Source: Elusimicrobiota bacterium (GTDB lineage Bacteria > Elusimicrobiota > Elusimicrobia > UBA1565). Taken from it: a DNA stretch of 39,701 nt. The notes below the pieces were generated by a model. The model ran no database searches and had not been told where the DNA came from. It saw only the letters and a list, made by a program, of their open reading frames with translations. The translations under genes were made by a program, and so were the position numbers. The DNA lies in NCBI GenBank assembly GCA_043827405.1, contig JBDRPD010000084.1, positions 1-39,701 on the forward strand. Reading direction: 5' to 3'. The stretch's first letter is position 1, and the number at the start of each line of letters is the position of its first letter. Shown piece after piece: positions 31,307-38,592 of this stretch.

Positions 31307-31500
31307 TCTAAATCATATTTATCGACGTACAACCCTGTTCCCCGCATAATTCCCCGGTGCGAAATCCGCTTGCCCTATAGGTCCAAAAGGCCTGATTTCT
31401 TTGGGCCTATTTTCAAATGAATTATGCCCATGCGGCCCACGCAAATATTCAGTCCATGGCCTAATATATCGTCATGGACGCATTGATGAGGGAACAAAAT

Positions 31501-34500
31501 ATGGCGAACCTCGAAAATATCGGAAAGAAATCTTTGGCCGCCGCGTTATCCTTGGCGCTCTTATGCACCTCGGCGTTCTCGCCGGCCTGGGCCGTCTACA
31601 GCGTGCCCACCAGCGTCGGCAACGCGAATATCGGCAGCAGTGCGCGCGTCGGCGCCGCCGGAGCCGGCGCCCAGCTCCTCAATATCGGCCAAATCCAAAC
31701 CTCCAATGTCGGCTCCCGCCTCTCCCTCGGCGGCACGCTGACCGGAGTGGAAAACCTGCAGGTGGCAGAGACCCGGCACGAGATCGCCCCCCAGCAGCTG
31801 GCGCCGGTCGTTGAGCGCCACCCGGTTCTCAATATCGTCAACGACCTGCAGAAAGCCGGCATCCAGATTCAGAACATGCCGAGCAGCGCCGAAGAGTACC
31901 AGGCATTGGAAGATGCGATCCAGCGCAACGTCCCCGAAGGCCGCGCCAAAGTCAATATGCTGGCCTTCGCCAAGTCGCTTTCCATGGGCGGCGCCGGGCA
32001 CTCCAAGATGGCCGAAGCTTTCGACGGCGGCATGCGCGACGGCAAATACGTCATGCCGGTGACCGAGACCGCCAGCCCAACAGGCTTCTGGAACTGGATG
32101 TCGCACCGCAAGCGCGGCTGGTTCGGCTTGAAAAAGTATGCCGCGGAAAAAACGGAAACGCAGCGCAGGAAGGCTCCTCTTATCAACAAGGATGCCCTCA
32201 GGGTCCCGATCGAGAGGCTGCGCTGGGTCCCAGATGCCAAGGATTTGCCGGAGAAGCTGACCGATCTCAAGGGCGGCAAAAGCGGTATCGTCGGCCAGGA
32301 CCGGGCGCTCAAATCCATCGATTTCGGTCTCGAGATGGATGATCCCAGATACAACCTGATCGTCACCGGCGCCGACGGCACCGGCCGCGAGACGGCCCTG
32401 CGCTATGCGCTGGCCAAGCTCGCGCCCACTAAGGAGACCCCGCCCGACATCGTCTCAGCGACCAACTTCAGAGACCCCAGCAGCCCCATTATGCTGACCC
32501 TGGCGCCGGGCAGCGGCCGCGCCTTCCAGGGCGCCGTACGGCAGGTTATCGGCACGCTGAAGCAGACTTTACCGCAGCACCTCATGAGCGGCCCCGTAGC
32601 CGAGAAGATGGAACAGATGCATGAAGCGGTCGCGCAGGCCAAAGACGAGGCGCTGGCGAAGTTTGACGCCGAGGTAGACAAGGTTAAGAGCGGGCGCTAC
32701 GGCATCCGCTTTATCGACCAGGGCAAGGGGCGCTTCGCCGTCGCCGTAACCATCGACGGCAAGGCCGTAACCCCCGAGCAGCTCGACGCCATCATTGAAA
32801 AGGACGCCAATGACGATTCGGTAACCGACAAGGTCACGATGGAGAAGTTCGAAGCGGTCCAGAAGGAACTGGGCGGCGAGATCAAGCGCTTCGGCAAGCA
32901 GCTGCAGTCCGTTATGTCGCAGCTCGCCCAGATGGAAGGCCAGGTCCAGCAGCAGATGATGCAGCTGCAGTCCCAGGTCGTCCAGCAAATCCTGCAGCAA
33001 GTCGGCCAGACCCTGCTGCCGTTCACGCAGGACGAGGCGCACGCGGCTTTCGCCAAGCGGGCACTGCAGCGAAAAATGGCGCTCGACAAAGAAATATCCG
33101 AGATCGTCATTCTCGAGAAGTTCGGCCTGGAAATCAATATCGACGGCGGGAAGCTGATGGCCGCGCCGACTTGGACCGACCCGGCCATGGCCGAGAAGAT
33201 CAAAGGCATGGGCCCCCTGGCGCAGGCGCTCGGCCTCGGCGGAGGCGCGCAGGCGATCAGCGAGAAGGAATTCAATCAGCTCAAGGAAGCCGGCCAGCTG
33301 CCGGCAGATCTCACCTGGAAGCAGCTCTCGGCGGCGGTGGTCGCCAAGGCGAAGGAATTCCTCCCGAAGTTCCAGGCCATGGGCAAGGAGAACCAACAGG
33401 ACCAGGAGTCTCTCCCTCAACCCACTCCGGAAAGCCGCAAGGTGCTGGCCTACGTGAAGTCGATGCTCAATCACATGGGGCAGGCCTATCCGATCTTCAT
33501 GCCGCGGCAGAGCGACGAGACGAATTCCGAGCAGGAGCCGATCACGCCGGAGAAGCTCTACAAGGTGAGCGTGCTGACTTCCAATAAGCCCGGAGCCGGC
33601 GCGCCGGTAATCTTCGAGCACAACCCGAGCTTCCAGAAGCTCTTCGGCGCGGCCAATGACGCCAGCACCATCGGCCAGAAGAACGGGATGATGATCAAGA
33701 TGCAGACGCCGGGCGGCCCCAACCTGGAGGCGGGCTCCTTCATCAAGGCCAACGGCGGCTATCTGGTCCTCGACATGATGACCGTCCTGCGCGAGCCGGG
33801 CGTCTATCAGGCTTTGATGCAGATGATCCGCAACGGCCGGGCCGTTATCAGCGAAGGCGGCGCGATGAGCATGGTCACGCAGCAGGGCGACCAGTACGAG
33901 GTCCCGGCCAAGGTCAAGGTGATCCTGATCGGCTCCCCTCACCTGAAGATGCTGCTGAGCAGCCACGACGAGGACTTCGCCGGGCTGTTCCGCTCGGTCG
34001 CGGAGTTCGAGCATTCGCTGGAGATCGGAGCCGAGGCGATGACAGGCTACCTCTCCTTCATGCGCACCATGGTCGAGCAGAGCGCGGGCAAGATCATGGA
34101 CTTCGCCAAGGGCGCGATCAGCGGCGTCTTTGAGATGGCGGCGCAGCTGGCGGAAAGCAACGTCGAGATGACCGCGCAGTTCGGCGCCATGCGCGGCCTC
34201 ATGCTGGAAGCCACCTACTGGGCCAAGAAGAACGGCCACGATATCGTAGAGCGCACGGACCTCGATCAGGCCGTCAGCGAGCGCGTCGAGCGCGTCGGCG
34301 GCATGCGGGAGCGGATCAAGAAGATGTACACCTCGGATTCCTTCCACATCGCCATCGAGGGCAAAGAGATCGGCCAAATCAACGGCCTCGCGGTGATGGG
34401 CGACTTCGGCGTCCCCGCCCGCATTACCTTCGAGAACCGCGTCCGGCCGGGAGCCGACTTCGTCGTCTCAGCCGACCAGATCGCGCACGCCACGGGCGGC

Positions 34501-35031
34501 AGCTTCGACAAGTCGCTGGCCAACATCAAGGGCTTCATGGGCAAGCTCCTGGGCCGCAACCGCACGGTACCGTTGGAGGTCTCGATCTCCTTCGAGCAGA
34601 ACTACGGCGGCATCGACGGCGACTCGGCCACCCAGACCATGATCTACGGCATCATATCGTCGCTCTCCGACACGCCGATCAACCAGGGCATCGCCATCAC
34701 CGGCTCGGCCGACCAGAAGGGCAACGTGCAGGTCATCGGCGGCGTCAACCACAAGATCGAAGGCTACTTCGACGTGGTCACCGAGAAGCTCAAGCGGGAA
34801 GGCCGCACGATGGAGGGCAAGCAGGGGATCATCATCCCTTCCGGCAACGTCAAGGACCTGATGCTCCGCCCCGACATCGTCGAGGCGGTCCGCCAGGGCA
34901 AGTTCAACATCTACGCGGTTGATCATATCAGCCAGGGCGTGGAGCTCCTGATGGACACGCCTTACTCCGAGGTGCTCAAGAAGGCCAACGAGCGCATCGA
35001 CCAGGTATGGGCGTCGGCCAAGGGCAAGTAA
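31501..35031 (+). CDS. LonC/LonB-like S16 protease with N-terminal signal peptide and extension
   Basis: IVGQDRAL, degenerate Walker A GADGTGRET, GAPVIFEHNPS, GSFIKANGGYL, KVILIG, GQINGLAV, FEQNYGGIDGDSA (Ser) and GGVNHKIEGYF (Lys); ATG 31501 with GAGGGA RBS. Confidence 0.9.
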   Translation: MANLENIGKKSLAAALSLALLCTSAFSPAWAVYSVPTSVGNANIGSSARVGAAGAGAQLLNIGQIQTSNVGSRLSLGGTLTGVENLQVAETRHEIAPQQLAPVVERHPVLNIVNDLQKAGIQIQNMPSSAEEYQALEDAIQRNVPEGRAKVNMLAFAKSLSMGGAGHSKMAEAFDGGMRDGKYVMPVTETASPTGFWNWMSHRKRGWFGLKKYAAEKTETQRRKAPLINKDALRVPIERLRWVPDAKDLPEKLTDLKGGKSGIVGQDRALKSIDFGLEMDDPRYNLIVTGADGTGRETALRYALAKLAPTKETPPDIVSATNFRDPSSPIMLTLAPGSGRAFQGAVRQVIGTLKQTLPQHLMSGPVAEKMEQMHEAVAQAKDEALAKFDAEVDKVKSGRYGIRFIDQGKGRFAVAVTIDGKAVTPEQLDAIIEKDANDDSVTDKVTMEKFEAVQKELGGEIKRFGKQLQSVMSQLAQMEGQVQQQMMQLQSQVVQQILQQVGQTLLPFTQDEAHAAFAKRALQRKMALDKEISEIVILEKFGLEINIDGGKLMAAPTWTDPAMAEKIKGMGPLAQALGLGGGAQAISEKEFNQLKEAGQLPADLTWKQLSAAVVAKAKEFLPKFQAMGKENQQDQESLPQPTPESRKVLAYVKSMLNHMGQAYPIFMPRQSDETNSEQEPITPEKLYKVSVLTSNKPGAGAPVIFEHNPSFQKLFGAANDASTIGQKNGMMIKMQTPGGPNLEAGSFIKANGGYLVLDMMTVLREPGVYQALMQMIRNGRAVISEGGAMSMVTQQGDQYEVPAKVKVILIGSPHLKMLLSSHDEDFAGLFRSVAEFEHSLEIGAEAMTGYLSFMRTMVEQSAGKIMDFAKGAISGVFEMAAQLAESNVEMTAQFGAMRGLMLEATYWAKKNGHDIVERTDLDQAVSERVERVGGMRERIKKMYTSDSFHIAIEGKEIGQINGLAVMGDFGVPARITFENRVRPGADFVVSADQIAHATGGSFDKSLANIKGFMGKLLGRNRTVPLEVSISFEQNYGGIDGDSATQTMIYGIISSLSDTPINQGIAITGSADQKGNVQVIGGVNHKIEGYFDVVTEKLKREGRTMEGKQGIIIPSGNVKDLMLRPDIVEAVRQGKFNIYAVDHISQGVELLMDTPYSEVLKKANERIDQVWASAKGK

Positions 35032-35052: not shown

Positions 35053-35084
35053 ACCCCCGGCCGCGAGGCCGGGGGTCTTTCTTT
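35053..35084 (+). terminator. Rho-independent terminator
   Basis: ACCCCCGGCC-GCGA-GGCCGGGGGT stem-loop followed by CTTTCTTT, just after the LonC-like gene stop. Confidence 0.9.
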
Positions 35085-35122
35085 GACGGAACTTATCATC
35101 TCTCTGATCGTAATATGTTAAT

Positions 35123-35545
35123 ATGAGGAACAACCGTGATGGTTGCGGTAATATCCGGCGTAGCTCAGCGGTAGAGCAATCGGCTGTGAGCAAGCGCCGG
35201 CGTGACGCTCGAACGTACCGCTCACGTGCCGAATACCTAAAGCGTAAGGTTTCGGAGCGGCGGAAAAGACTGAGACGGCAGTCAATTGATCATCTTGGCG
35301 GCCGCTGCGCAGTCTGCGGTTATGTCCGATGCGACGGAGCCTTGGAGTTTCATCACCGGGATGCGGCAGCGAAGAAATTCGGCATCTCGAAGTCCGGGGT
35401 AACGCGTTCTTGGCGGAAGATCGCGTCAGAGTTGGACAAATGCGTCCTGCTTTGCGCGAATTGTCACCGGGAGATTCACGCCGGCATAACGCAGCTTCCA
35501 CCGGCAACGGTGGTTGAAAAATCGGGTGAATTCAGGGAAGCCTAA
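35123..35545 (+). CDS. Intron-encoded HNH (putative homing) endonuclease
   Basis: LGGRCAVCGY..C..ALEFHHRD...KF.IS...ELDKCVLLCANCHREIH zinc-binding HNH motif with a basic N-terminus. Start is either ATG 35123 (upstream of the tRNA) or GTG 35186 (spanning the splice site). Confidence 0.88.
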   Translation: MRNNRDGCGNIRRSSAVEQSAVSKRRRDARTYRSRAEYLKRKVSERRKRLRRQSIDHLGGRCAVCGYVRCDGALEFHHRDAAAKKFGISKSGVTRSWRKIASELDKCVLLCANCHREIHAGITQLPPATVVEKSGEFREA

Positions 35546-35749
35546 ACCGGCGACGGCAAGGTAATCCTGAGCCAAGCCCCTCGAATCGAGGGGAAGGTGC
35601 AGAGACTAGAGCGAAAGCTCGTACCTCGGACATGTTCCGCGGGAAGCGCCCGACACCCCTCGTGGGTGATGATATAGTCCAAGCCTCGGTGAAAGCCGAG
35701 GGGTCTTGTAACCGATGGGTCGTAGGTTCGAATCCTACCGCCGGAGCCA
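35154..35749 (+). tRNA. tRNA-Asn(GTT), split by an intron (exons 35154-35187 and 35709-35749)
   Basis: Joined exons give TCCGGCGTAGCTCAGCGGTAGAGCAATCGGCTGT|TAACCGATGGGTCGTAGGTTCGAATCCTACCGCCGGAGCCA: fully paired acceptor (TCCGGCG/CGCCGGA), anticodon stem ATCGG/CCGAT, loop CT-GTT-AA, G73 and encoded CCA. Confidence 0.95.
35188..35708 (+). ncRNA. Group I self-splicing intron (IC3-like core), 521 nt, at tRNA position 35/36
   Basis: Exon ends in U and intron ends in G. P1 is GGCTGT paired with GCAGCT (35491-35496, U.G at the splice site). P2 is CCACCG-GCAA-CGGTGG. P3 is TCGGGTG(35522)/CGCCCGA(35647). P is GAATTCAGGGAA, Q is AATCCTGAGC(35563), R is GGTGCAGAGACTAGA(35596), S is GATATAGTCC(35671). 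P7 is GACTA/TAGTC and P9 is CCTCGGT-GAAA-GCCGAGG. Confidence 0.93.
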
Positions 35750-37378
35750 ATTTGTACCTAGCGGGTAACCAGAGGTTTGGGCCGCTAGCAGTTCGGAGGA
35801 AACCTTTCCGAGGGTTTTCTCGTCGAGAACCGGGGTCTTTTTAGACCCCGGTTTTTGCTTAGGTGGGGCTGTTAACGGAAGGGTAAAAACGACTTTTGCC
35901 TCCAGCTTTCCGCTAACCACAATCTCCCTTACAAGGCACTGCATCAACAGGCGTTTGCGGCTCGGACGCCAGCTTTCAAAACTGTCCAAGGCCTTCAGCA
36001 AGGTCGCGGATACCCCCTCGGCCTTGGCGTCCTCACCCGCGAGGTCCCGCAAGCGCGAGTCGATTCCCGCCAGCCGACCGCGCAGCTCCTTGGCCCTATC
36101 GATCTGCTCCTCGATCTCCCGGCTGACCTCGGCGGAGACTTCCTTGCTGGGAACGTTCTCCACCATCCAACGGACCTTGTCCGCTTTCGACCGCTCGACC
36201 GCCTCCAGGCGCTTTTGCAGCGCCTTGCGCTCGTCTGAGAGCCTCTTGGCGGCTCCCTGGCACTCCTTGCGATGCTTGCGCAGGTACTGCTCGATCACTT
36301 TAGGATGGCGGGCTATCTCCTTGATCTCATGCGTGATGGAGTCCTCAAGGGCTCTGGCCGGGACGTACTTCATGTCGCAAGAGCCGTTCCTTCTCCTGGA
36401 AGCGCAGGCATAGTAATACTTCCCCTTTCCCTTGCCGGTCGTCATCTTCTTGCCGCAGCGCCCGCATTTGACCAAGCCGGTAAGGATGTTGGGACTGTGG
36501 AGCGCTTCGGAGGATATCGCGGTCCTTGCTTTGAGCATTTCCTGCGTCCGCTGAAAAAGCTCCTCGCTGATTATGACTTCATGCCGGGCCTTGACCGGCT
36601 TCCCGTCCATTATCATGAACCCGGCATAGACGGGATTGGTAAGCATCTGCCAAACCGTGGTGTTCTGCCAGCCCGTCTTCCGCCGACGGGTGGTCTTGTC
36701 CTCTTTCCGCATGGTCCTGGTGATCAGCTTGACCCCGATGTTTTCCTCGGTCAGCAGCCGGAAGACGCGCCGGACAAAAGGCACTTCTTCTGGCCGTACC
36801 TCCAGCACCCCATCCTTTGAGACCCGATAGCCGAAAGGCGGGAGACCGTTCCATTTCCCTTCTTTCAAGCGGCGGCGAAGCCCCATTCGAGTCCTCTCCC
36901 CGATCAGCTCCCGCTCGAACTGCGCGAAGGACCCCAGCATGTTGAACAGAAGCTTGCCGGGAGGCGTGGTCGTATCGAAGGGCTCGGTGATGGACCGGAT
37001 GCCGACGTCGATGCGCTCGAACATTTCCCCCAGCGAAACGAGGTCGCTCAGTTTGCGGGAAAAACGGTCGAGCTTGAAGACCAGAACGAGGTCGAACTTC
37101 TTTTTCCTGGCGTCCTCCAAGAGACGCCGCATGGCCGGGCGGTTGAGGTCCTTTCCCGAATAGCCGTCGTCCACATAGGCCGGCAGGAGAATCCATTTAT
37201 TGAATTGCGCCGTGCCCTCCAGCTTCTCGATCTGCGCCGCGATGGAGTAGCCCGTCTTGGCCTGCTCCTCGGTCGAGACGCGCACGTAGACGGCGGCGCG
37301 GAGGACCTTCTGCTTATCCTCCGAGTCGTTCGAGGAGCGCTTGCGGAAAGCTATGGGTGAGCGGCGTTTGCGTACCAT
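35735..37378 (-). CDS. Large serine recombinase (integrase)
   Basis: YVRVST catalytic Ser, DDGYSG...RPAM, KLDRFSR, AQFERELIGER, PFGY recombinase domain, CGRCG/YYAC zinc ribbon, coiled coil. Confidence 0.95.
   Translation of the reverse strand: MVRKRRSPIAFRKRSSNDSEDKQKVLRAAVYVRVSTEEQAKTGYSIAAQIEKLEGTAQFNKWILLPAYVDDGYSGKDLNRPAMRRLLEDARKKKFDLVLVFKLDRFSRKLSDLVSLGEMFERIDVGIRSITEPFDTTTPPGKLLFNMLGSFAQFERELIGERTRMGLRRRLKEGKWNGLPPFGYRVSKDGVLEVRPEEVPFVRRVFRLLTEENIGVKLITRTMRKEDKTTRRRKTGWQNTTVWQMLTNPVYAGFMIMDGKPVKARHEVIISEELFQRTQEMLKARTAISSEALHSPNILTGLVKCGRCGKKMTTGKGKGKYYYACASRRRNGSCDMKYVPARALEDSITHEIKEIARHPKVIEQYLRKHRKECQGAAKRLSDERKALQKRLEAVERSKADKVRWMVENVPSKEVSAEVSREIEEQIDRAKELRGRLAGIDSRLRDLAGEDAKAEGVSATLLKALDSFESWRPSRKRLLMQCLVREIVVSGKLEAKVVFTLPLTAPPKQKPGSKKTPVLDEKTLGKVSSELLAAQTSGYPLGTNWLRR
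35828..35856 (+). terminator. Hairpin, likely terminator of the tRNA-Asn transcript, embedded in the integrase CDS
   Basis: AACCGGGGTCT-TTTT-AGACCCCGGTT followed by TTT, about 80 nt downstream of the tRNA CCA. Confidence 0.65.
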
Positions 37379-37384
37379 AAAGTT

Positions 37385-37876
37385 TTATGCGTGGTGCAGC
37401 GCGTCCTCCCTTGTACGGACAAAGGCCAGGGCGTCCTCTTCCCGGATAAGCGACAGCCGCCCCACCCTCCGCGCGCGCAGACGCCCCGTGCGGATAGCCT
37501 TGCGGACCCCTTCGCGGGTGCAGCCTGCCATTTTCGCGACCTCTCCGGTCGTATGCTCCTTTTGCTCCCCCTCATCGGTAGAGAAACCCTCGACGACCTC
37601 CTCCTGCACGAGGTAGCCCTGCCGGATGCCGATCCGCTTGGACATATCCTCGCAGACCTGGTAGAGGGGCGTCTTGGAAAGAGGCCTTCCCAGGCGCTTG
37701 ACGTGAGCATGCAGGGGTGTGGAGGGAGCCATATACAAGTTCTCGAAATCCAGGTAGCTTACGCCCTCCTTCACCTTCTGCGTCAGCTTGCCGAGGACCC
37801 TGCGTTCCTCGACCGTAAGCTTCGCCAGGGATAACTGCGTCCCTTCCAGCGTCGTATATGCGCTCTTTCTCCCCAT
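37385..37876 (-). CDS. Protein with C-terminal excisionase-like HTH domain
   Basis: HTTGEVAKMAGCTREGVRKAIRTGRLRARRVGRLSLIREED; start MGRKSAY at 37876 with GGAG RBS; immediately upstream of the integrase. Confidence 0.8.
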   Translation of the reverse strand: MGRKSAYTTLEGTQLSLAKLTVEERRVLGKLTQKVKEGVSYLDFENLYMAPSTPLHAHVKRLGRPLSKTPLYQVCEDMSKRIGIRQGYLVQEEVVEGFSTDEGEQKEHTTGEVAKMAGCTREGVRKAIRTGRLRARRVGRLSLIREEDALAFVRTREDALHHA

Positions 37877-37895
37877 CTCAGCGGGCTCCATATTT

Positions 37896-37924
37896 AGTGT
37901 AACAGGAGGGTTATTGTTTGTCAA
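37896..37924 (-). promoter_or_regulatory. Sigma70-type promoter for HTH-integrase operon
   Basis: Minus strand TTGACA-17 bp-TACACT with extended -10 TG. Confidence 0.75.
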
Positions 37925-37959
37925 CCCATTGGTTTGCATGTGTCCGCCATCCATTTCCG

Positions 37960-38592
37960 TCACTCGCCCGCCGGGTCGCAGACGAAAACCCCCTCCCCTC
38001 TGACCGACAGATATATGATCTCCTGATCGCATTCCCTGCCTCCGTCGAATATCTCGTCCTTGATGAATCGCTCGACGCCGCTGACAACATCATCTGAACA
38101 GCAGTCGAAGATGAACATGTATGAAGCGTCTCTATCGAGCCGCCTTGAGGACACTTTCGGCAGCCATTCGCCGTAGACAAGAGCGACCTCATGCGACAGC
38201 CTTTTCCCGAGAGCCTTCCGAATCCCAGCCCACCGCTCCCGGGAGAACAGCGGACGCCGATAGCCCGACTCGTCTCTATTGGCGAGTTTCGGAACAAGGA
38301 AGAAGGCTCGATCGCTCCGCGGCCCCTTGGATGCGGCGATTAAGCCCGGTCTTTTGCAGCCCCATTCATCAGCCAAGCGTGCCAAGGCTGATTCCAAAAC
38401 GCGCACGCTTGTCTCATCAGGCAGCGCCACGATATAGCCGGTCCCATCCCCCGGCAGCAGGTCGGTCAGCGCTCCGGGACGGATCTCGGTGAACCCGCCG
38501 GCGAGCGCCAGCAGACAGTCCCGCAAGCGCCGGACCTTGCCGTGATCCCGCTCAGGATCAAGACCGCGAAAGCGGAAGTCGAATTCCTTCAT
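37960..38592 (-). CDS. Hypothetical protein
   Basis: Open frame co-oriented with the element genes; probable start MKEFDF at 38592 (track 38622). Confidence 0.6.
   Translation of the reverse strand: MKEFDFRFRGLDPERDHGKVRRLRDCLLALAGGFTEIRPGALTDLLPGDGTGYIVALPDETSVRVLESALARLADEWGCKRPGLIAASKGPRSDRAFFLVPKLANRDESGYRRPLFSRERWAGIRKALGKRLSHEVALVYGEWLPKVSSRRLDRDASYMFIFDCCSDDVVSGVERFIKDEIFDGGRECDQEIIYLSVRGEGVFVCDPAGE

Follow-up and report, generated by a model that had tools for sequence, protein, structure and literature searches.

The window analysed here is a stretch of 39,701 nucleotides (nt) on contig JBDRPD010000084.1 of an uncultured Elusimicrobiota bacterium (assembly GCA_043827405.1). It contains a tRNA-Asn(GUU) gene whose anticodon is interrupted by a group I intron, and the intron carries an open reading frame (ORF) for a small endonuclease of the HNH family. 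We estimate at about 0.85 the probability that a mobile group I intron from a widespread lineage specific to tRNA-Asn has lodged in the organism's sole tRNA-Asn(GUU) gene. The features are collected in Table 1; positions are those of the window.

The split tRNA-Asn gene and its ribozyme

With introns allowed, ARAGORN reported a tRNA-Asn(gtt), i(35,521), at 35154-35749, the 521-nt intron lying between anticodon positions 35 and 36. The joined exons (35154-35187 and 35709-35749) make a tRNA of 75 nt with the anticodon loop CTGTTAA. The insertion point, CUGU/UAA, is past the fourth base of the loop, with a U at position -1 and a terminal G in the intron. When the intronless tRNA-Asn of two relatives was searched with blastn against the whole genome, only 35154-35187 (residues 1-34) and 35709-35749 (residues 35-75) were matched. 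This split at exactly 34/35 fixes both intron boundaries independently. A sequence-only reading of the window had described two tRNA-Asn(GTT) halves 521 nt apart, interrupted within the anticodon at 35/36, and both searches agree with it. Its expectation that standard annotation would overlook the gene was also correct: default ARAGORN yielded a tRNA-Lys and a tRNA-Leu in the window and nothing at the split gene, and the Rfam tRNA model found the same two and missed the tRNA-Asn.

The genome (4.33 Mb in 108 contigs, 98% complete) has no other detected tRNA-Asn gene. Apart from the split gene, ARAGORN with introns allowed listed 52 tRNAs, which serve the 19 other amino acids but not Asn. As the split gene is the sole one, the decoding of Asn codons in this bacterium most likely depends on splicing by the ribozyme, a dependence that the sequence-only reading had put forward.

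That reading had further called for a covariance-model check on 35490-35708. The Rfam model RF00028 (Intron_gpI) matched 35417-35701 with 87.2 bits (E 4.6e-21), above the gathering score of 50, and a search of the whole genome gave 86.2 bits at the tRNA-Asn intron, the genome's only group I match. P1 has six pairs, in which U35187 at the 3' end of the exon is paired with G35491, and the guide sequence lies 303 nt downstream of the splice site. G35708 immediately precedes the 3' splice site; the corresponding sequence ...TTG/TAAC was found in 28 of 30 loci fetched from a sample of genomes of the phylum that includes the present one. The Rfam model placed its positions 1-46 at 35417-35497 (first hairpins 35421-35456) as P1/P2. 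This placement was discarded because the stretch is the HNH coding region, which is missing from relatives without the ORF. Two relatives of the same family have such ORF-less introns, of 234 nt in genome G002 (88% core identity) and 241 nt in genome G013 (75%). In these short forms GCAGCU is found only a few bases past the exon end GGCUGU, and the alignment with them shows that the ORF of the window occupies the place of a P1 loop of 7-9 nt.

The helices were counted on an alignment, A2, of 15 of the 21 tRNA-Asn introns that were collected. Those left out were L026, identical to the G002 intron, the three introns L017, L057 and L073, which belong to a class discussed below, and the divergent L112 and L117. 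Standard pairs filled 96.5% of 985 cells, and 26 of the 66 pairs showed compensatory changes on both sides. None of 500 shuffles matched any of the five measures, and pairing fell to 30-48% when partners were slid by 1-3 columns. P1, P4 and P7 were nearly invariant and hence uninformative in this respect; the fixed exon accounts for the lack of compensatory change in P1. The P3-P9 core, including the P3/P7 pseudoknot, is supported by covariation. The elements P1-P9 named in the sequence-only reading are borne out by covariation over 15 introns, and its U.G splice pair and terminal G are invariant in the same alignment.

We propose the following course of splicing. In the folded pre-tRNA, the exon segment GGCUGU (35182-35187) would pair with the guide GCAGCU (35491-35496) across the 303-nt loop, and a free guanosine would attack after U35. 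The terminal G (35708) would then occupy the guanosine-binding site in P7, and the exons would be joined, giving the anticodon loop CUGUUAA.

Table 1. Features of the split tRNA-Asn locus in the window
Feature	Position	Strand	Remarks
Terminator-like hairpin and T-run	35053..35085	+	Closes the upstream Lon-like gene
tRNA-Asn(GUU) exon 1	35154..35187	+	Acceptor, D arm, 5' anticodon stem, loop nt C32 U33 G34 U35; ARAGORN -i, blastn of relatives' intronless tRNA-Asn
P1 5' strand GGCUGU	35182..35187	+	In the exon; U.G pair at the splice site in 15/15 sequences
HNH endonuclease ORF	35186..35545	+	119 codons if begun at GTG 35186-35188; stop TAA 35543-35545 in P5
Group I intron, 521 nt	35188..35708	+	From the first base past U35 to the terminal G (omega G, 35708); RF00028, ARAGORN -i
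Internal guide sequence GCAGCU (P1 3' strand)	35491..35496	+	Also codes the conserved T-Q-L of the protein
Ribozyme core	35498..35701	+	Helices drawn up, then counted on alignment A2
P2	35498-35513	+	GCAA loop
P3	35522-28 with 35647-53	+	
P4	35532-37 with 35565-70	+	
P5/P5a	35541-61	+	
P6/P6a	35571-98	+	
P7	35602, 35604-08 with 35675-80	+	Bulged A35603
Two extra hairpins, P7.1/P7.2 position	35609..35643	+	35609-20 (GAAA loop) and 35624-43
P8	35655-67	+	
P9	35684-35701	+	
Omega G	35708	+	Column invariant in alignment A2
tRNA-Asn exon 2	35709..35749	+	U36 A37 A38, 3' anticodon stem, variable loop, T arm, acceptor, encoded CCA; ARAGORN -i, blastn

The HNH gene and the alleles found in relatives

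An open frame of 140 codons spans 35123-35545; upstream it passes through exon 1 to an ATG at 35123. The ORF fills the P1 loop and then crosses the guide sequence, P2, P3 and P4 to stop in P5, so that its last ~18 codons (TQLPPATVVEKSGEFREA) are the guide GCAGCT, P2, P3, P4 and P5 read in frame. The sequence-only reading had located an HNH gene in the P1 loop with an extension into the core, and the protein comparisons agree. Twenty-one PHROGs families matched at E <= 1, most of them annotated as HNH endonuclease, the best being phrog_2255 (E 8.4e-28); the search of the product against NCBIfam gave no meaningful match. Protein homologues numbered 812 at E <= 0.001, with a best identity of 70%. 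A few of them bear the name HNH endonuclease or McrA and come from Uhrbacteria, Parcubacteria and WWE3. They fit a remark in the sequence-only reading that tRNA-Asn introns at 35/36 had been reported for Patescibacteria, a subject on which our literature search found no paper.

In an alignment of 50 sequences the residues C41, C44, H56, H57, C86, C90, N92, C93 and H94 were invariant, and H98 was present in at least 90%. The invariant set comprises two CxxC pairs, an HH pair and the motif CANCHRE, and the ORF of the window kept all 27 invariant columns. A sequence search of the PDB retrieved McrA (E 0.039) and, at E 0.0026, the En domain of a maturase from a group II intron. The AlphaFold (AF2) model had a pLDDT of 81.8 and showed one long helix at the N-terminus and, after it, a beta-beta-alpha unit; residues 108-118, with a pLDDT below 50, were disordered. 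Judged by its motifs and its homologues, the ORF product is a member of the HNH (beta-beta-alpha-metal) endonuclease family with an intact frame. Residue Q103 was invariant and L104 nearly so among the 50 sequences, and both are coded by the guide GCAGCT. From this we infer that essentially the entire protein clade resides in tRNA-Asn introns. The ORF-less introns gave tblastn matches of 16-17 residues to exactly residues 103-119.

Eleven tRNA-Asn loci were examined among 40 relatives: two had an ORF-less intron (G002 and G013) and nine were intronless. A wider sample of the phylum gave a ribozyme match at E <= 1e-8 in 33 of 401 genomes, the genome of the window included, and in one family the proportion was 17 of 47. 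Among the 30 loci fetched from this sample, 28 were tRNA-Asn genes split at CTGT/...G/TAAC. Nine of these had a full HNH gene (again counting the window), two had remnants of 28-31 residues and 17 had none. The Rfam gathering score was exceeded by all 15 related loci and by all six further loci bearing an ORF. A scan of metagenomes with the protein confirmed three loci among 599 pattern matches; the metagenome loci coding for relatives were all tRNA-Asn introns (3/3), one of which was miscalled by ARAGORN.

A pattern made of two core motifs, applied to genomes taken one per species, found at least 120 loci, 100 of them inside split tRNAs according to ARAGORN. These 100, among the matches listed, were 48 Gln(CTG), 18 Asn(GTT), 12 Arg(CCG), 7 Leu(TAA) and 15 other calls, some surely miscalls. 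Their hosts, again among the matches listed, were Gammaproteobacteria, Elusimicrobia, Omnitrophota, Aminicenantes, Bacteroidales and others. Homologous HNH genes lay in the P1 loop of the loci L057, L073 and L079, and wrecked HNH genes were seen in L118 and L017. Cultured hosts of the same core motifs in tRNA-Gln(CTG) or tRNA-Arg(CCG) genes were Lysobacter, Luteimonas, Rhodanobacter, Dyella and Granulosicoccus.

The tRNA-Asn intron, with or without the HNH gene, is therefore widespread in many Elusimicrobiota and in several other phyla. Full, decayed, ORF-less and empty alleles occur side by side, which is the pattern expected of a homing element. Most likely, the HNH product cleaves intronless copies of the tRNA-Asn gene close to the anticodon, and repair of the break would copy the intron in. 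The intron of the window is one more copy of this widespread, barely published and presumably mobile intron. Particular to the present copy are a host outside the Candidate Phyla Radiation (CPR), an uncultured Elusimicrobiota bacterium with a 4.3-Mb genome, a pair of extra hairpins, and the lack of an internal start codon.

The extra hairpins form an insert of 35 nt between the 5' strand of P7 and P3'. Compensatory changes were counted in 6 of their 10 pairs on A2: in 3 of 4 for the GAAA-capped hairpin (helix 11, 100% paired) and in 3 of 6 for helices 12-13. Introns of subgroup IC3 have a compact core without extra helices between P7 and P3', and P7.1/P7.2 mark subgroup IA. The sequence-only reading had called the ribozyme IC3-like, a description that holds only in part: because of the two covariation-supported hairpins, standing where IC3 introns have no helix, we do not call the ribozyme IC3. 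It is, as far as its sequence and pairing tell, a tRNA-type core with an insert at the P7.1/P7.2 position rather than a plain IC3 intron. The part of PMC3984707 available to us lists P7.1 and P7.2 among the elements that tell intron classes apart. The hairpins resemble those of subgroup IA in following directly on the 5' strand of P7 and preceding P3', but the core sequence is of the tRNA-intron type.

Two classes could be told apart among the split tRNA genes of the pattern scan. In the insert-less class AGACTA runs straight into GACAC...CACCTAAAG; its members are the tRNA-Asn introns L017, L057 and L073 and tRNA-Leu(TAA) introns of Bacteroidales. The insert-bearing class has one long hairpin in tRNA-Gln and tRNA-Arg introns and two hairpins in the tRNA-Asn class of the window. 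Since the sister tRNA-Asn introns L057 and L073 are without the insert, it looks like a lineage-specific addition and not a sign of IA ancestry. The present intron has the core motifs TGAGCCAAGCC, GGTGCAGAGACTA and GATAGTCC in common with introns of tRNA-Leu(TAA), tRNA-Gln(CTG) and tRNA-Arg(CCG); for the seven tRNA-Leu(TAA) introns among the pattern-scan matches listed, this is a likeness in the two motifs of the pattern. The single long hairpin at the P7.1 position was seen in the Gln(CTG) introns (at least 48) and Arg(CCG) introns (at least 12) of Gammaproteobacteria.

Start of the reading frame, RNA data and other explanations

Several observations weigh against a splicing and mobile intron with a working HNH gene. 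The Pfam HNH model scored 16.7 bits, under its cut-off of 21.4, and Foldseek gave no match to the PDB at E <= 0.001, its top weak matches being nearly all HNH nucleases (Cap5, Gme HNH, Cas9 HNH, ZRANB3 and McrA). Twelve rows of A2 were collected by a pattern that contains P7, and the invariance of P7 is thus partly the result of selection. The ORF is without an ATG, a leader or a Shine-Dalgarno sequence within the intron, unlike the DNA of relatives (L134-L136, L073 and the copies from the phylum sample). Finally, the one RNA contig with joined exons may come from an intronless gene of another organism. This contig, from a sediment metatranscriptome of another study (X8), joins 35187 to 35709 exactly, at a depth of 2.8 and with a shorter side of 28 nt.

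Other RNA contigs of X8 and of X3 match parts of the ORF with 0-3 differences. They demonstrate no more than the presence of near-identical copies elsewhere, DNA carry-over or another host being possible sources. The RNA runs of the source study, X21 and X22, contained next to none of the sequence words of the window; X21 did not cover the intron and gives no evidence either way. A joint at 35177>35716 in X21 was rejected as a splice product, as it has 17 other letters and comes from another tRNA.

The start of the ORF calls for closer attention. The intron begins GAGCAAGCGCC, and no in-frame ATG, GTG or TTG precedes the zinc-binding CxxC. The stretch homologous to the N-terminus of relatives (RDARTY) starts ~15 nt past the splice site. 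Only two canonical starts are in frame: the GTG at 35186-35188, which straddles the 5' splice site and consists of G34, U35 and the first base of the intron, and the ATG at 35123, upstream of the tRNA and without a Shine-Dalgarno sequence. In relatives the situation is different. The loci L134, L135, L136 and L073 each possess an ATG of their own, 30-60 nt into the intron, and in L135 (112-180) and L136 (1150-1197) a TATAAT-like box (TGATATAAT and TGGTATAAT, respectively) stands ahead of the ORF in the P1 loop, an arrangement that suggests that the endonuclease has a promoter within the intron. The eight other full-length copies of the phylum sample start with A-rich leaders, several having an ATG among the first bases shown. 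Among the best 120 of the 812 homologues, 88 proteins start 3-6 residues before the R-x-Y motif, three start 7 residues before it and 12 have longer N-termini. Three of these 12, P0001 and P0003 (the two closest of the 120) and P0022, read out of the translated tRNA-Asn exon in the frame of the window with no internal start, as judged from the protein sequences alone. Two further proteins, P0044 and P0067, begin with M-A-V, like the ATG-GCT-GTN of the tRNA-Asn anticodon stem and loop (compare L017, L073, ...CATGGCTGT); in this other sub-lineage translation may start at an ATG in the exon, or such an ATG may have been taken for the start by mistake.

The missing internal start can be read in two ways, as a start codon at the junction or as a gene that has lost its start. 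According to the second reading the intron still splices, its endonuclease gene is silent or beginning to decay after loss of the leader and start, and the resident intron is no longer mobile. The contrast with the ATG and the TATAAT-like boxes of relatives speaks for this loss, as do the ORF remnants and ORF-less copies, which show that the lineage undergoes ORF loss. On the other side, the frame is complete with every invariant column in place, and the same layout recurs in P0001, P0003 and P0022. This shared layout favours a working alternative start over a fresh lesion, and we regard a silent gene as rather unlikely, though it deserves serious consideration.

A more tentative proposal, to which we attach a somewhat low probability, concerns the form that such an alternative start could take. 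In the sub-lineage of P0001, P0003 and P0022 and in the present copy, the GUG formed by G34, U35 and the first base of the intron would initiate translation. The endonuclease would then be made only from the unspliced pre-tRNA, and a ribosome at this place would block P1, so that splicing and endonuclease synthesis would be mutually exclusive for each precursor. If true, a start codon at the junction would let a selfish gene couple its expression to unspliced RNA by simple means.

A mobile group I intron remains our preferred reading. A need for a helper protein in cellular splicing, whether the HNH protein as maturase or a chaperone of the host, is improbable. Such a need could arise if the large P1 loop and translation through the core hindered folding: P1 has to close over 303 nt, and the ORF overlaps the core from the guide sequence through P5. 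ORFs that reach into core sequences need tight expression control, according to the portion of PMC3984707 available to us. However, the ORF-less copies, with their P1 loop of 7-9 nt, have the same core, typical of autonomous tRNA introns. No HNH enzyme is known to act as a maturase. That the interrupted tRNA-Asn is a pseudogene, with the Asn codons read by a tRNA from an unassembled part of the genome, is very improbable: an assembly in 108 contigs at 98% completeness could lack a tRNA gene, but neither exon is damaged and both match those of G002 exactly, the ribozyme keeps every core pairing, and no further tRNA-Asn half was found elsewhere in the genome by ARAGORN or blastn.

Neighbouring genes, known introns and significance

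Upstream of the split gene lies a Lon-like protein of 1185 residues (31474-35031, forward strand) with LonB-like AAA, LonB LID and Lon_C protease domains; its N-terminal ~700 residues have a signal-like start and no family match. In view of the terminator-like hairpin behind this gene, the pre-tRNA transcript most likely begins between the hairpin and position 35154. The promoter scan upstream of the tRNA found no sigma-70-type site; a candidate extended -10 element, TGTTAATAT at 35116-35124, was spotted by eye.

On the other side of the tRNA, a large serine recombinase with Resolvase, Recombinase and Zn_ribbon_recom domains (35735-37378, reverse strand) has a frame whose end falls inside the final ~15 nt of the 3' exon of tRNA-Asn. 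Beside it is an HTH_17 protein (37385-38032, reverse strand), and the contig ends 4 kb further on. From this arrangement the recombinase locus looks like an integrative element inserted at the 3' end of the tRNA. A paralogue of the recombinase, 52% identical, is present on contig C59, of 3.4 kb, on which no tRNA or att-like repeat was found. At the locus L139 a recombinase of 29% identity lies ~550 nt downstream of a split tRNA-Asn. The G002 genome has, besides its intron-bearing gene, a 41-nt copy of the tRNA-Asn 3' exon (98% identical) at C191:9475-9515, which may represent either a second gene or an att-type repeat that an integrated element left behind.

Our literature search found no paper on group I introns in tRNA-Asn, nor any on tRNA introns with an HNH gene. 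Williams (2020, bioRxiv 10.1101/2020.01.27.920355) extended the known types of bacterial tRNA intron from 4 to 21 and also stated that introns longer than ~400 bp may contain genes. The main text of that work has 0 occurrences of "Asn", a count of the wording of the text only, since the table and figures are images. The introns described there resemble the present one in their place in the anticodon loop, in the U at -1 that forms a U.G pair with the guide, in the terminal G, and in having been found with Rfam Intron_gpI and ARAGORN while ordinary tRNA finders missed them. The present intron differs in its host, a tRNA-Asn cut past the fourth base of the loop, in the extra hairpins between P7 and P3', and in its HNH gene. 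Group I introns hiding tRNAs in CPR genomes are mentioned in the part of PMC8172020 that was available. PMC5733544 was considered as a precedent and set aside, since its "group I intron" refers to inserts of 22-49 nt.

The closest counterpart with an endonuclease is the tRNA-fMet intron of Synechocystis PCC 6803, of 655 nt, which encodes I-Ssp6803I in 150 codons (excerpts of PMC1995217 and PMC3384342). Both introns split a chromosomal bacterial tRNA gene in the anticodon loop, and I-Ssp6803I is, according to these excerpts, aimed at the anticodon region of the intronless gene, as we suppose for the HNH product. Their sizes are similar (521 nt and 119 codons here). I-Ssp6803I is, however, a PD-(D/E)XK nuclease and not an HNH enzyme, and the tRNA and the insertion point also differ. 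In the 2007 compilation, as far as its available part goes, I-Ssp6803I was the only tRNA-intron endonuclease, and HNH genes in group I introns were known only from phage protein-coding genes (PMC1995217). The phage enzymes I-HmuI, I-BasI and I-TwoI (PMC3384342 and PMC1995217, seen in excerpt) are likewise HNH nucleases coded inside group I introns. The HNH protein of the present intron is much smaller, at ~105-119 amino acids; it has two CxxC pairs and one long helix at the N-terminus, and none of the separate DNA-binding modules described for I-HmuI. Unlike the phage introns, the present one resides in a tRNA gene of cellular genomes.

For the organism itself and for many other uncultured bacteria, the consequence is that annotation wrongly reports tRNA-Asn as missing. 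Across phyla, the tRNA-Asn intron and its small HNH enzyme exist as full, decayed, ORF-less and empty alleles, a large natural series suited to studying the homing cycle, and the cultured gammaproteobacterial hosts of the same core motifs would be handy for wet tests. The enzymes of ~105 residues could be a source of compact site-specific nucleases.

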